In this document: piece by piece, positions 59,607 through 64,000 of the stretch
Layout: each line of letters starts with the position of its first letter
How positions within the stretch are numbered: the first letter of the stretch is position 1
NCBI GenBank assembly: GCA_050951765.1
Contig: JBMNJR010000008.1
Location: 54,795 to 118,794 of the forward strand
Length of the DNA: 64,000 bases
Origin: a bacterium
GTDB lineage: Bacteria > Bacillota > DTU030 > JBMNJR01
Reading direction: 5' to 3'
Made by a program: the position numbers and the translations under genes
The notes under the pieces: generated by a model
What the model was told of the DNA's origin: nothing
What the model saw: the letters and a program-made list of their open reading frames with translations, nothing else
The model's database searches: none

Positions 59607-60136
59607 CCTCCCATTATACTCTTATGGGGGGATGACATTTTCCCTGATGAGTTATGCTATGACATTATCACTGATTAACAACATAATTTGCAAAAAATAT
59701 TGACAAATAATACTTTACAATATATATTGGACTGTAATTAATACAAGTTGCTAATTATTACTAATGGGTTTTATTTAATGAAAAAATCATAAATCACTTG
59801 TTGCGTCTTCAAATCAAACCGTCCCATCCGCGAATTAATATACTGGAGTAGATATCGGCATGTTACCCTCAGCCAGCGTCTTACCAACATGTGTAAAGTT
59901 TAATAAACTGGGACGAAAAAACGCATGGGCTTTTCCTTAGGTTCTTATGGTTGGGGAGATAAAGAAGTAAAAGAAATAGCCTAATTCATAGCGCCAATAA
60001 GTGGGGATGACCCCAAGAACCATTTAACATACAATATGTTCCTACTACGCAAGAGGAGGTGGCGCAAAAAACCGGTGAAAAATAAGGCAAGCTTCCGTAA
60101 TGAATAAAAAACACGTTTATTAAAGGAGAGAGAAAA

Positions 60137-60298
60137 ATGGAAAAATGGGTATGTACGATCTGTGGGTACGTTTATGATCCTGAAATCGGCGATCCCGATA
60201 ATGGCATATCGCCAGGCACATCCTTTACAGATTTGCCCGAAGATTGGGTGTGCCCTCTCTGCGGAGCAGGGAAAGATCAATTCCAGGAGGAAGAATAA
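60137..60298 (+). CDS. Rubredoxin
   Basis: 53 aa, below the ORF-track cut-off; [13 protein letters not shown]...DWVCPLCGA double CxxC knuckles; RBS AAAGGAGAGAG. Confidence 0.85.
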
Positions 60299-60320
60299 TA
60301 TTTTAGGTAGAGGTGAGCAC

Positions 60321-60677
60321 ATGGGAGAAAAATTATTTTTTTATTGTGTCAATAACTGAACAACCTGCAGTAAAGCGAAAGCGTGGCTTTCGCAGGCAGG
60401 CGTCCCATTTACAGACCGCAACCTAATTAAGAACCCACCTACCGAAGAAGAACTTTATCACTTGACCAAGTTAGCTCAATTGTCCCTTAAAGACTTAGTT
60501 AACACCAAGAGCCAGACATATAAGAAGCTAAATCTAGACATATCCGGATTAGAAGATGATGAAATCATAAGGCTAATTCAAACCAACCCAAGATTATTGG
60601 TACGTCCTTTGTTATTTGATGAGCAGCATTTAATCATAGGATTTAAAGAGGATGCATATCAAAAATTCCTTGGCTAA
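60321..60677 (+). CDS. Spx/ArsC-family thioredoxin-fold protein with in-frame TGA (predicted selenocysteine, UxxC motif)
   Basis: RBS GAGGTGA plus ATG 60321; single frame reads MGEKLFFYCVNN[TGA]TTCSKAKAWL...; the TGA at 60357..60359 aligns with the first Cys of the Spx CxxC motif; hairpin follows. Confidence 0.65.
60364..60396 (+). promoter_or_regulatory. SECIS-like hairpin downstream of the UGA
   Basis: Stem GCGAAAGC/GCTTTCGC with GUG apical loop, starting 16 nt after the TGA. Confidence 0.5.
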
Positions 60678-60712
60678 ATGCGTTGCATTTTTATGACGGG
60701 GGAGGCATAGAT

Positions 60713-61045
60713 ATGAACTGGAAATGTACAGTCTGTAATTTAATCCGGCAAGGCGAAAGTCCGCCGGAGAAATGCCCTAAATGCGGTGTGCCAGGTTCAA
60801 AGTATGTACAAATGAGCAAAGAAGAATGGGATTTAGTAGAGCGCTCCCGCTACACAAATGCATTACATATAGAATTACTTACTATTTTTCCTAGGTTGAT
60901 AGAAATTGCAAAAAAAGGGCTCGAAGACAATTTGGATCCTAGATGTGTTGATTTATTTGCGCATTTACTTAAAGAGGCATCCTTCCTAGAAAGCTCAACA
61001 AAAGCAGAAATAGAAGGCCATATGAAAAAAGGAAAATGGGGATAA
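60713..61045 (+). CDS. Hypothetical protein with N-terminal rubredoxin-like zinc ribbon
   Basis: WKCTVCNL...EKCPKCGV four-Cys knuckles then a helical domain; start ATG 60713 with RBS GGGGGAGG. Confidence 0.5.
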   Translation: MNWKCTVCNLIRQGESPPEKCPKCGVPGSKYVQMSKEEWDLVERSRYTNALHIELLTIFPRLIEIAKKGLEDNLDPRCVDLFAHLLKEASFLESSTKAEIEGHMKKGKWG

Positions 61046-61182
61046 AAAGGTATTAAATAGGAGGTTTAAATATGCCAGAAGAATTCAAGATCGGATGCCA
61101 AAGGCCCCCTCTAAATAATAAAGACAATAACAAGCAAGTCTCTAACATCGAAGGGCAACCTGTGTTAAAGGAGGAACAATCC

Positions 61183-61794
61183 ATGGTTAAGGTTGGTAAA
61201 TCAGCACCGGAATTTACTGCTCCTGCATTCTATCAAGGAAAGTTTATGAATGTAAGTCTTTCCGAGTATATCGGCAAATGGGTATTGTTGTGCTTCTATC
61301 CCGGTGACTTTACCTTCGTCTGAGCAACAGAAATTTCAGCAGTTGCTGAAAAGCACCAAGAGCTGCAAGATTTAGGGGTGGAAATATTATCTGTTAGTGT
61401 AGACAGCGTATTTGTTCACAAAATGTGGAACGATCATGAACTGTCCAAAATGATTAATGGCAATATCCCATTCCCTATGTTATCCGACCAAGACGGCAGT
61501 ATCGGTAAAAAATATGGCATTTATGATGAAGATGCAGGAGTTGAAACAAGAGGAAGATTTATTATTGACCCTGATGGTATTATCCAGGGGTTTGAAGTAT
61601 TAACACCTCCGGTGGGCAGAAATGTAAGTGAATCCATTCGCCAAATTCAAGCATTTCAACTGGTCCGTGCTGCAGGAGGAGCCGAAGCAACACCCTCAGG
61701 CTGGAAGCCTGGCAAGAAGACTCTCAAGCCAAATCCCGAACTTGTGGGTAATGTTTGGAAAGAGTGGAAGGTAAGCGAAGCCTTTGAAGATTAG
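61183..61794 (+). CDS. Peroxiredoxin (AhpC/Prx family) with in-frame TGA at the peroxidatic position (predicted selenocysteine)
   Basis: RBS AAAGGAGG plus ATG 61183; ...FYPGDFTFV[TGA][11 protein letters not shown]...[13 protein letters not shown]; the TGA at 61321..61323 replaces the Cys of the FTFVCPTE motif; C-terminal EATPSGW lacks the resolving Cys of AhpC. Confidence 0.75.
61324..61350 (+). promoter_or_regulatory. SECIS-like hairpin downstream of the UGA
   Basis: Stem TTCAGC/GCTGAA with AGTT loop, beginning 11 nt after the TGA. Confidence 0.55.
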
Positions 61795-61886
61795 TTGATT
61801 TATTGCGACAAGGGCACATAATGAATAACAAACCATGTGCCCTTGTCTTGATATAAACATTTTCTCCCTGAGTCTGCGCAAGTTTA

Positions 61887-62066
61887 TCAGTACGGAAAAT
61901 GGGACGCTGTGGAGTTTAACCTAATATCGATAGTTTCATTATACATTGCCGTTTCTGCAACAACTTCTATCCCGGCTGCAGCAGCCAAGTTACTTAACTC
62001 TTCCATTGAATAAATAAAATCCGCCTGATTGTTTAAATTAACACCTACAACTATACCTTTTACCAT
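61887..62066 (-). pseudogene. GTPase HflX N-terminal remnant
   Basis: Strong RBS GGAGG plus ATG; VVGVNLNNQADFIYSMEELSNLAAAAGIEVVAE matches the HflX N-domain, then diverges and stops after 59 codons. Confidence 0.35.
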
Positions 62067-62197
62067 TTTGAGCCTCCAGTAATATCAAAATAAAAGACAC
62101 AGACCCACCCGTCTGTGCCCTTAGTACTGGTAAGAGTAGCTTAATTGTAACATGCTGATTAGTTATTTACAACATTACACCAATGGTAAATGAAGAT

Positions 62198-62593
62198 TCA
62201 ACGTGCACCTAGAGTAATGCCTAGAACAATAATTGCAGCAAAAAACGCAAATACAACCCCGATAATAATCAGAGCTAGTTTTGTTTCCGTAAGGCCAAAT
62301 TGAGTACGATACGGATCTATTTCGCTATAGCCATCTTTCTCCCGCATCTTCAAGGGACGTTTAAAACGCACCCGCTGATCATCAAATTTCTCTAGCAATT
62401 CCCATCCATTCTCAGCTTCTTCTTGACAAAGCTGTCGCAACCTCTCGCCGGTTATTTTTCCTGCAGAACGAACAATCTTAAATTCCCACCCGTTGAGGTC
62501 TTGATCACTATAACCAGTCAAGCGTTCTTCCTCCTCACGCAATTTTGCTTGCTGCGCTGCCACTGCAGCACCGACGGCAGCTCCGGCAGCCAT
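62198..62593 (-). CDS. Hypothetical protein with C-terminal TM anchor
   Basis: 131 aa; soluble domain with GWE motifs and one C-terminal TM helix. Confidence 0.45.
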   Translation of the reverse strand: MAAGAAVGAAVAAQQAKLREEEERLTGYSDQDLNGWEFKIVRSAGKITGERLRQLCQEEAENGWELLEKFDDQRVRFKRPLKMREKDGYSEIDPYRTQFGLTETKLALIIIGVVFAFFAAIIVLGITLGAR

Positions 62594-62691
62594 AGCATTA
62601 CCTCCTCTCCACCAATAAAGAAACCCAATATCATTATCTTTTCACCAAATATTGGCTAGTTCCTGTTGCCAAGGTGGAAGACATCTGATAG

Positions 62692-63918
62692 TTACTCATC
62701 CAACAGCCTTTTTTCGCCGGTAATTTCCTGTAGCGGTTTGATGTCTTGCGTTACCTCCATTGTCCCAATATACTCCCCTGCTTCGTTTCTAACAGCAAAA
62801 TAACGGATCAAAACATACTTATCTCCCATTTGAAGCCAAAAGTCTTCCTGATCTTTCTTCCCAGCCATTAAATCCGCAACTATCTTCTCCACTATGTGCA
62901 CGCTGGCGGGCGGATGGCAATTTTGCACCTTCCGGCCAATAATAGTTTTAGGTCGGGCAAAGATCCGCTCCTTCCCTTGAGAGAAATACTTCACCACGCC
63001 ATCTTTATCCACAAAAGTTATATCCACAGGCAAAGTATTCAAAATCCCATTTATTTCTTCCGGTAGAAGCATACCAGTGGGGAATTTTATATACCCCTCA
63101 GTAGCGGGCTGTTCTCCTTCTGCCTTTAGTTTTTTCTCTACATCTACTCGAACCGGCTGCCATTTTTGTTGGGGTTCTATCAGGCAATATCCGAACTCTT
63201 GGCTTTCTTCCGCAATTTCTATCCATTCATCTTCCGCTAAGGTGTCCAGTGCCATGGGAAACAATATGCTTTCTTCTTTATAAATCATTTCCTTGATTTT
63301 ATCTATGGCTTCCCTAGCTCTTGCCAATATTTTTTCCTTATTTTCTTCCGCTGCAGTCAATAACTGCCTAACCTCTTTAATTGCATCCCTAATCTCATCA
63401 TCCACACCCCACATTACCTTCGGTGGGGCTGTAATACCATACTTTTCTAAATAAGGGAACAATAAGTTTTCTTTGCGCCCATAATGCTTGTCGATTTCCC
63501 ACAGCAGATCAAAATCTTCCTGTAGTGCCTGTGCGTTTGCCTGCGTATCTTTCCGGAAGTTTTTCATATGTACCTGAATTCTATTTTGAATCAACTTCTC
63601 CAATTCCCTATTCTCCAACTTAAAGGTATGAATGGGGTGACCGGGAATATCCTCCGGCTTTTGGTCCCGATGAATTTCAGCAATCGAGCCTTTAAAAACT
63701 GCCGCATGCACGTCACATAACCTTTGTATTTCCTCCACCGGCATCCCCTCATTGATCAATGCCTGCTCCATCTCCGATATTTCTGTAGGAGAGATACCTG
63801 CAATAACTTCAGCAAACCTGGATTTAACCTCCTCCACACTTTTCCCGCTATGCAATTCATTAATAAGCTGTTTTAATACCTGCTGCCTGTACTCCCGGTT
63901 ATTAATCAGCTCACTCAT
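62692..63918 (-). CDS. DUF438-type protein with hemerythrin-like and C-terminal PAS domains
   Basis: C-terminal PAS-like region (FVDKDGVVKYFSQGKERIF...); start ATG 63918 with RBS AAAGGAGG; ORF track extends to 63993. Confidence 0.65.
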   Translation of the reverse strand: MSELINNREYRQQVLKQLINELHSGKSVEEVKSRFAEVIAGISPTEISEMEQALINEGMPVEEIQRLCDVHAAVFKGSIAEIHRDQKPEDIPGHPIHTFKLENRELEKLIQNRIQVHMKNFRKDTQANAQALQEDFDLLWEIDKHYGRKENLLFPYLEKYGITAPPKVMWGVDDEIRDAIKEVRQLLTAAEENKEKILARAREAIDKIKEMIYKEESILFPMALDTLAEDEWIEIAEESQEFGYCLIEPQQKWQPVRVDVEKKLKAEGEQPATEGYIKFPTGMLLPEEINGILNTLPVDITFVDKDGVVKYFSQGKERIFARPKTIIGRKVQNCHPPASVHIVEKIVADLMAGKKDQEDFWLQMGDKYVLIRYFAVRNEAGEYIGTMEVTQDIKPLQEITGEKRLLDE

Positions 63919-64000
63919 AAGATCGCCTCCTTTAATGATATTCTCTCCGCAGTGAATTATTCTATAAGTTGGAATTCTACAGAAAAAATTCAATCCCTTT

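Follow-up and report, generated by a model that had tools for sequence, protein, structure and literature searches.

Background

Peroxiredoxins depend on thiol or selenol partners for their recycling, and the known bacterial reductants are AhpF, thioredoxin, redoxins of the glutaredoxin/NrdH type (e.g. Cp9) and AhpD. In this work we analyzed an operon, here named rd-spxU-znr-prxU, that encodes a rubredoxin, a predicted selenoprotein of the Spx/ArsC fold (SpxU), a rubredoxin-like protein (ZnR) and a predicted selenocysteine peroxiredoxin (PrxU). The operon lies in a stretch of 64,000 nucleotides from a bacterium of the Bacillota (GTDB lineage DTU030; JBMNJR01; GenBank assembly GCA_050951765.1, contig JBMNJR010000008.1, positions 54,795 to 118,794 of the forward strand); this whole stretch is referred to as the window, and all coordinates are given relative to its first nucleotide unless a locus is named.

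The selenocysteine peroxiredoxin PrxU was described in Eubacterium acidaminophilum (Sohling et al. 2001, as cited in PMC13188914). The PrxU of the window resembles this protein in having selenocysteine (Sec) at the peroxidatic position (TxxU), a selenocysteine insertion sequence (SECIS) directly after the Sec codon, and no C-terminal resolving Cys; in contrast, the window protein has a Cys-bearing N-terminal extension of 37 residues, and its gene shares an operon with the gene of a second predicted selenoprotein. In Clostridium pasteurianum, the small redoxin Cp9 is encoded between the reductase gene cp34 and the peroxiredoxin gene cp20, and it reduces this peroxiredoxin (Reynolds, Meyer & Poole 2002, according to PMC3720550). 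The window is similar in that a small redoxin of the CxxC kind, which would serve as reductant, is encoded beside a peroxiredoxin; however, Cp9 is a Grx/NrdH-type protein and not one of the ArsC/Spx fold, neither Cp9 nor Cp20 is a selenoprotein, and the dedicated TrxR-like reductase Cp34 has no counterpart in the window operon. The cluster of C. pasteurianum likewise adjoins the rubredoxin gene. Two selenoproteins of the ArsC fold have been catalogued, i.e. "arsenate reductase (UxxS)" and the "arsenate reductase 2/-like (cd03032, UxxC)" protein of marine metagenomes (PMC2398784, PMC9312934, PMC13188914). The parts of these reviews and of the Global Ocean Sampling (GOS) study that were available to us mention neither Spx nor a link to peroxiredoxins for these proteins.

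From the analyses presented here we propose that the operon would serve in the peroxide/oxygen defence of an anaerobe by means of a selenol/thiol arm, formed by PrxU and the redoxin SpxU, and a co-expressed iron arm, formed by rubredoxin and ZnR. We assign to this reading a probability of about 0.5.

Results and discussion

The rd-spxU-znr-prxU operon

The genes of the operon, its two Sec codons and the hairpin that ends it are the following:

60137..60298, plus strand: rubredoxin gene (rd), 53 aa, with CTIC...CPLC(G) knuckles; PF00301, NF045768
60321..60677, plus strand: spxU, predicted Spx/ArsC-fold selenoprotein gene, 118 codons; PF03960, TIGR01617
60357-60359 (UGA) and 60375-60393 (hairpin), plus strand: Sec codon of spxU and its candidate SECIS hairpin, GCGAAAGC-GUG-GCUUUCGC; -11.6 kcal/mol, z -3.1
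60713..61045, plus strand: znr, gene of the rubredoxin-like protein ZnR, 110 aa; PF21349
61072..61794, plus strand: prxU, predicted selenocysteine peroxiredoxin gene, 240 aa; NF040737
61321-61323 (UGA) and 61334-61351 (hairpin), plus strand: Sec codon of prxU and its candidate SECIS hairpin, UUUCAGC-AGUU-GCUGAAA; -8.0 kcal/mol, z -2.3
61801..61853, plus strand: hairpin at the end of the operon, which probably acts as a terminator in both directions; -23.3 kcal/mol, z -5.5

The region 60137-61794 of the plus strand is a single operon, since the intergenic gaps are tight (22, 35 and 26 nt), each of the four genes is preceded by its own Shine-Dalgarno sequence, and prxU is followed by a strong hairpin (13-bp stem) whose stability was not equalled by any of 200 shuffled sequences. 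An earlier note on this DNA had described an island of six genes for redox and oxygen defence, i.e. these four and two on the minus strand, and had predicted Sec in two of the products. All six genes are present. The two Sec predictions and the link to oxidative stress were confirmed as well, and two coordinates were corrected.

Selenocysteine codons and SECIS hairpins

The in-frame TGA of spxU is codon 13. A protein search with the single SpxU sequence gave 4 proteins, and a metagenome scan combined with a profile was needed to obtain the rest of the homologues, to which some were added by later look-ups. In 40 distinct homologues of this set a TGA is found at the identical column, and 29 other distinct homologues have Cys there. 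The Sec forms share the motif [FY]C-x3-U-xTC-[RQ]KAKAW, and the stem of their hairpin begins 18 nt past the U of the UGA, a spacing that is kept in 31 of 35 sequences. The codons that form this hairpin are nearly fixed in the Sec forms (GCG in 30 of the 35 sequences, AAA in 31, GCG in 32, CTT in 34, and TCG in 26), despite a protein identity of 32-57% and while the adjoining codons vary freely; the Cys-type homologues have the same amino acids at the hairpin but encode them with other codons. Given that the synonymous codons are frozen in the Sec forms and not in the Cys forms, the hairpin is considered a SECIS. The stem is almost invariant, so covariation cannot be scored. Three Sec-type spxU genes (L109, 1705-1764; L120, 2096-2155; L163, 6019-6078) do not have the canonical GCGAAAGCGUGGCUUUCG hairpin, and carry GCCAAGGC(C/U)UGGCU instead.

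The TGA of prxU is found within FTFVU(P/A)TE in all 12 distinct PrxU genes that lie beside SpxU or ZnR homologues, and the apical C-AGUU-G of the hairpin is present in 11 of these, the gene of L092 being different at this point. The stem reads UUUCAGC/GCUGAAA in the window and UUGGCG/CGCCAG in most of the others; three of the six consensus pairs show one double change each, but all of these come from the window and represent one event, not independent covariation. The 60-nt fold after the PrxU UGA is unconvincing (z -0.1), whereas the local hairpins are significant. Neither a SECIS nor any other RNA family was found by Rfam in the region 59600-64000, at gathering or at permissive thresholds, and therefore the SECIS evidence rests on comparative data. 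Within the window, a tRNA-Sec was not found. As judged from the comparison of sequences, both TGAs are predicted to be real Sec codons.

A JGI gene call of 167 aa labelled "ArsC"/"Spx" (L005, 374-877) was evaluated as a possible Cys read-through allele and was rejected, since its DNA has the same TGA. This contig differs from the window by a sole mismatch at 59927, and the gene call (P0121) reads the TGA as W, probably by the use of an alternative genetic code. Gene calls with W at the Sec position are a useful artefact to find selenoproteins in that database. Several full-length calls of the SpxU family from Logan and ENA likewise show W at this position.

PrxU lacks the C-terminal resolving cysteine

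PrxU matches NF040737 with 407.8 bits (cutoff 270), with residues 7-235 aligned to positions 2-232 of the 233 of the model. The start codon is ATG 61072 and not the internal ATG 61183, because the N-terminal extension of 37 residues belongs to the model, as reflected in the score of 407.8 bits vs 393.6 without it. On the basis of this family match the protein is predicted to be a PrxU-type selenocysteine peroxiredoxin. The peroxidatic Sec lies in the sequence FTFVUATE (PxxxTxxU), and the C-terminal resolving position reads EATPSGW, i.e. the resolving Cys is missing. The extension (61072-61182) includes Cys9, in the sequence KIGCQRP; a Cys-bearing extension is common to the PrxU proteins of Anaerolineales that are encoded next to ZnR (KIPACVQP in L067, 1457-1560; KIPSCVQP in L070, 1953-2060), and the other PrxU genes start with MSCE.. 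or do not have the extension. The Cys of the extension could be an alternative resolving residue.

SpxU belongs to a separate clade of the ArsC/Spx superfamily

SpxU has the active-site motif C9-x3-U13-x2-C16, and matches PF03960 (E 3e-21) and TIGR01617 (Spx/MgsR; 100.6 bits vs a cutoff of 75). An assignment to the glutaredoxin-dependent arsenate reductase ArsC was tried and rejected (TIGR00014, 43.5 bits vs a cutoff of 106). The catalogued "arsenate reductase 2/-like" selenoprotein (cd03032; NF041106, ArsC_rel_Se_1) is also a member of the ArsC/Spx superfamily with UxxC; in contrast, SpxU shows the C-x3-U-x2-C motif and a link to PrxU, and belongs to another clade because its score on NF041106 is 32.7 bits vs a cutoff of 85. 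The kind of protein is known, and the SpxU clade is not described in those parts of the literature that the search covered.

The closest solved relatives of SpxU are Spx proteins (84 bits, a gapless alignment of 111 residues), in which U13 corresponds to C10 of Spx, and C16 to C13. SpxU and Spx (YjbD of Bacillus subtilis; PDB 1Z3E, 3GFK, 7F75) share the ArsC/thioredoxin-like fold, with an ungapped identity of approximately 35%, and also the positions of the redox pair (C10/C13 in Spx) and R92-P93. In a database search, a profile of the SpxU clade detects its own members with E values from 1e-44 to 1e-34, followed by SpxA from Enterococcus and from Bacillaceae (approximately 1e-28). These similarities to Spx, the TIGR01617 score above cutoff, and the fact that regulators are often encoded next to their targets would agree with SpxU being a genuine regulator of the Spx type, able to bind RNA polymerase, with a selenenylsulfide (U13-C16) at the place of the C10/C13 switch that would be oxidised by PrxU in a relay from peroxidase to regulator. 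Nevertheless, the residues of Spx that we take to face the alpha-CTD and the DNA (G52, R60, K66 and R91) are not conserved in SpxU. G52, presumably the alpha-CTD contact, is E, T, S or K and never G in 35 SpxU sequences; R60 is replaced by K in 21 of these and by G in 7, being R in the other 7; K66 is retained in 17 and replaced by D in 12 and by E in 4; and R91 is variable, so that the basic patch is variable or even reversed in charge. SpxU ends at about residue 115 of Spx, with family lengths of 114-126 aa, and it lacks the C-terminal tail of approximately 17 residues that we assume Spx uses for its control by ClpXP/YjbH. Moreover, the protein scores below the cutoffs of PRK01655, "transcriptional regulator Spx" (103 vs 123), and of the SpxA model PRK12559 (81 vs 159). 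SpxU also differs from Spx in that Sec takes the place of the first Cys of the pair, in that a further invariant Cys precedes it by four residues (at Spx T6), and in that spxU habitually adjoins a peroxiredoxin gene. In the parts consulted of the reviews cited above, the catalogued selenoprotein families are redox proteins, known or predicted, and only one entry, a putative protein of the FmdB family, is "regulatory". Taken as a whole, we consider it improbable that SpxU is a regulator of the Spx type, and slightly more improbable that it works as a functional one, with a selenenylsulfide switch oxidised by PrxU as a bacterial counterpart of yeast Orp1-Yap1. We know of no earlier selenoprotein transcription factor, and SpxU would be the first if this were true. 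Although the earlier note had held that a regulator and a redox partner could not be told apart, gene context and residue conservation lean to a redox partner, short of proof.

The named hosts of the SpxU clade are Bacillota, i.e. Dethiobacter alkaliphilus and Bacillota metagenome-assembled genomes (MAGs), and the remaining loci are unassigned metagenome contigs. The cultured strain D. alkaliphilus AHT1 (ACJM01000015; L173, 4932-5273) has a Sec-type spxU, whose product begins with MLEFYCFPAURTCQKAKAWL..., with the same SECIS; its public record includes only a 90-aa fragment of SpxU, annotated as "arsenate reductase and related". The members of this clade are routinely truncated at the UGA in annotation, and the label "regulatory protein Spx" may be wrong for them.

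SpxU genes are associated with PrxU genes

A Sec-type PrxU gene was found within 1.5 kb of 15 of the 28 informative distinct Sec-type SpxU genes, vs none of the 18 informative Cys-type ones (Fisher p = 8e-5, with no correction for phylogeny). In most cases PrxU is immediately upstream of SpxU, on the same strand and with a gap of tens of nt, and the neighbouring PrxU proteins are 57-68% identical to that of the window. The pair was found in no fewer than five distinct gene neighbourhoods, for instance next to macro-GatCAB, in the series FDP...EVE-Rd, where FDP is a flavodiiron protein (L120: FDP, PrxU, SpxU, EVE, Rd), or with Rrf2 upstream. In L179 (2543-4279) the gene of the Rrf2-family regulator is located directly upstream of the prxU-spxU pair.

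According to the mechanism that we propose, PrxU would reduce peroxide at its selenocysteine, and it would need an external partner for resolution and reduction because its C-terminal resolving Cys is missing. This partner would be SpxU, a dedicated small redoxin that resolves and reduces oxidised PrxU and is in turn re-reduced by a reductase encoded elsewhere. SpxU seems the most economical candidate since it has a thioredoxin-like fold and UxxC, its gene adjoins prxU, and the residues typical of the Spx regulator have been lost.

Several facts weigh against this proposal. The operon does not include a gene for a reductase of SpxU. By sequence SpxU is nearest to true Spx regulators, and its score is above the TIGR01617 cutoff. 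In 13 of the 28 informative loci, including that of Dethiobacter, SpxU has no PrxU nearby, so it is not an obligate partner of PrxU; in addition, many of the PrxU-SpxU loci are related, and the counts overstate their independence. In the window ZnR is placed between spxU and prxU, an arrangement that differs from all the other loci examined, and a structure search with a model of ZnR gave no informative neighbour of its helical domain, beyond the metal knuckle.

It could also be argued that the four products do not interact, and that the operon does no more than express together oxidative-stress proteins that work independently, as one more shuffled defence cluster of an anaerobe; rubredoxin would then serve rubrerythrin, FDP or SOR encoded elsewhere, PrxU would depend on general thioredoxin, and SpxU and ZnR would act on unrelated substrates. 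The make-up of the cluster is indeed very variable among relatives, NCBIfam calls PrxU "thioredoxin-dependent", and to the SpxU genes without PrxU mentioned above can be added ZnR, which has no peroxiredoxin nearby in 76 of 80 loci. On the other hand, the adjacency of PrxU to the Sec-type SpxU, with short gaps and never to the Cys-type, is not expected from independent proteins, and the same can be said of the adjacency of ZnR to rubrerythrin and to rubredoxin, which is far above the expectation for genes present one to two times per genome. We regard the lack of interaction as rather unlikely.

Among the loci examined, the exact four-gene set in the order rd-spxU-znr-prxU was found only in this species. 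Nevertheless, the pairs PrxU and SpxU, ZnR and rubredoxin, ZnR and PrxU, and, more loosely, ZnR and the DUF438 gene described below are found again in other genomes. The co-localisation pointed out by the earlier note is thus beyond chance, since several of these pairs were seen in unrelated genomes; the lack of conserved synteny in relatives, which the note had named as grounds for refutation, was not observed, since the island as a whole is lineage-specific and yet its gene pairs recur.

Two additional SpxU loci have other neighbours. In L177 (2834-4312), SpxU is divergent from genes of a TusA-like protein and of Se_S_carrier (PF11823), which may point to a connection with the trafficking of selenium or sulfur. 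In L175 (5001-7016), a close Cys-type orthologue of SpxU (FYCFPTCSTC) is convergent to a gene for the hybrid-cluster protein (Prismane), beside an FeFe-hydrogenase cluster, which is a further redox-stress context without peroxiredoxin.

Rubredoxin and ZnR

The product of rd is a rubredoxin with two CxxC(G) knuckles (PF00301, E 1.5e-25; NF045768, 108.2 bits vs a cutoff of 90). ZnR matches only PF21349, the rubredoxin-like domain of the rubrerythrin type, with its residues 3-31. The metal knuckle is formed by C5, C8, C21 and C24 and is followed by an antiparallel two-helix hairpin that ends in KGKWG; the AlphaFold2 (AF2) model (pLDDT 95.4) consists of this knuckle and the single hairpin. With this model, Foldseek aligned approximately 34 residues of rubrerythrin, which correspond to the knuckle only. 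ZnR was considered as a rubrerythrin (PF02915 plus PF21349) and this was rejected, given that the di-iron four-helix-bundle domain is missing.

The ZnR family has at least 482 matches among species-representative genomes of bacteria and archaea, and is spread over Bacillota, Chloroflexota, Zixibacteria, Bacteroidota, Desulfurococcales and Hadarchaeota. Its invariant residues include C5, C8, C21, C24, N49, D72, D75, C78, E99, H103 and the C-terminal KxKWG. In the neighbourhoods analyzed (L007-L090), rubrerythrin is a neighbour of ZnR in 32 of 78 loci, in 28 of these upstream on the same strand, and rubredoxin is near ZnR in approximately 20 of 80; other neighbours are ferritin-like proteins (8 loci), Fur-family regulators (6) and NROR-like flavoproteins (6). 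Rubrerythrin with a Fur/PerR-type regulator is the commonest context for the ZnR homologues. The perR-rbr-rdl operon of Desulfovibrio vulgaris and the NROR-rubredoxin-rubrerythrin/FDP pathways of anaerobes (PMC545781) also present a small rubredoxin-like protein after rubrerythrin under a regulator of the Fur/PerR type. By analogy ZnR may occupy the "rdl" slot of the Desulfovibrio operon, a comparison made by gene context only; in contrast to that operon, the window ZnR has no adjoining rubrerythrin, PerR or NROR, and PrxU is in the position of the peroxidase.

Within the mechanism proposed here, rubredoxin and ZnR would take part in an electron chain of the NROR/rubredoxin/rubrerythrin type that runs parallel to the selenol arm and does not feed PrxU. 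The earlier note had suggested the opposite, i.e. that rubredoxin, perhaps via ZnR, donates electrons to PrxU. It is true that rd is the first gene of the prxU operon, that a rubredoxin is found within 1.5 kb in 4 of 40 distinct Sec-type SpxU loci (as in L109/L110, L111 and L120), and that ZnR has PrxU for a neighbour in L067, L070 and the window, and a peroxiredoxin in L034. However, most PrxU-SpxU pairs have no rubredoxin nearby, and an established rubredoxin client is present in the same cluster in L120 (FDP) and in L070 (rubrerythrin and an NROR-like protein). Peroxiredoxins run on thiol or selenol partners, and we know of no rubredoxin-dependent one. In general, rubredoxin and ZnR are found in the company of rubrerythrin, flavodiiron protein and NROR-like reductases, and the companion of PrxU is SpxU; for this reason we consider a rubredoxin-driven reduction of peroxide very unlikely.

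Genes on the minus strand

Downstream of the operon, the following features were found:

61887..62066, minus strand: HflX-like ORF of 59 aa; PF13167 and TIGR03156, both in their N-terminal part
62093..62122, minus strand: terminator-like hairpin and T-run 3' of the 131-aa gene, with a 12-bp stem and the tail TATTTTGATA
62198..62593, minus strand: gene of a 131-aa protein that has a hydrophobic anchor at its C terminus; no match to any family
62692..63918, minus strand: DUF438-hemerythrin(HHE)-PAS_10 gene, 408 aa; PF04282, PF01814, PF13596

The DUF438 protein includes PF04282 (residues 15-80, E 1.7e-30), PF01814 (94-223, E 4.8e-19) and PF13596 (290-394, E 5.6e-30), and has no output domain. Its start corresponds to the 408-aa form, which extends to 63918; a TTG start at 63993 would make it too long. 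The closest solved relative is PDB 3CAX (PF0695 type; E 2.3e-59), a protein that is itself uncharacterised. In two Anaerolineales MAGs (L067 and L070), a gene of this type, whose product is 44% identical to that of the window, lies within 7 kb together with genes for NROR-like protein, rubrerythrin, PrxU, ZnR, a ferritin-like protein and ferredoxins; in L089, a closer relative of ZnR is encoded with a DUF438 protein, rubrerythrin and catalase-peroxidase within 6 kb. This convergent and recurrent companion of the operon may bind iron, O2 or NO. The earlier note had suggested a sensor; with no output domain and an uncharacterised closest structure, this function continues to be conjectural.

No family was found for the 131-aa protein in the hidden Markov model (HMM) libraries, and in the loci examined it is not beside DUF438 or ZnR homologues. 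The HflX-like ORF, which was absent from the list of the earlier note, gives weak matches to PF13167 (E 0.009) and TIGR03156 (E 9e-4, residues 4-48 on positions 2-46 of 351), and looks like a remnant of an HflX gene, although it may be a small ORF; it was called as a gene in the JGI contig L001. In a different part of the window, a TPP riboswitch (RF00059; 78 bits vs a gathering score of 54.3) is located at 38235-38344 on the plus strand, 5' of the ORFs that begin at 38376.

The region upstream of the operon

Two features lie 5' of rd:

56702..59683, no strand assigned: composite insertion sequence (IS) block, absent from the allele of contig L003 and outside the module
59700..59728, plus strand: candidate sigma-70 promoter TTGACA-17-TATATT, approximately 410 nt 5' of rd; weak evidence

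The IS block is made up of an ISNCY-like fragment, a truncated IstB, an IS21 IstA and an HTH ORF, and lies between the rubredoxin operon and a divergent Amidase_6 gene, whose common intergenic region it interrupts. The window has 99.8-100% identity with contigs obtained from other samples, and in one of these, the near-identical contig L003, the sequence at ~56701 is joined straight to that at ~59684, which leaves the empty site ...CTAACAC|TAATTTGC... Since L003 keeps the operon without the block, the block is a recent insertion, and the operon is native. The IS21/ISNCY scar that the earlier note placed beside the island is hence real and recent. The possibility that a mobile element or genomic island carried the operon was ruled out, because L003 indicates that only 56702-~59683 was inserted.

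The candidate promoter matches the consensus at 11 of 12 positions, and the scan as a whole was not enriched over shuffled sequences. It is located in native DNA to the right of the IS junction, and it is also present in the IS-free allele of L003. A search for operators 5' of rd revealed only weak AT-rich palindromes, and no convincing PerR or Rex-like operator.

Regarding contig L001, it carries an intact IstB of 241 aa and an ORF of 265 aa, of which the window has a truncated and fused version; the segment 57106-57203 of the window corresponds to 6062-6491 of L001. To the left of the IS block the window and L001 are 99.56% identical (23 mismatches in 5163 nt) and to the right they are 100% identical, which suggests recombination or a chimeric assembly.

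Conclusions

The island can be viewed as a lineage-specific assembly of known oxidative-stress parts, in which the new element would be the recurrent pair of predicted selenoproteins PrxU and SpxU. Every part belongs to a known class, and current understanding is not overturned. In both bacteria and archaea, ZnR is a very widespread protein that accompanies rubrerythrin and has yet to be characterised. If a selenoredoxin of the ArsC/Spx fold does serve a selenoperoxiredoxin, it would represent a new recycling partner for peroxiredoxins, and the PrxU-SpxU couple would carry out an all-selenium reduction of peroxide in strict anaerobes. The value of this pairing is that it provides a concrete hypothesis, testable in a cultured organism.

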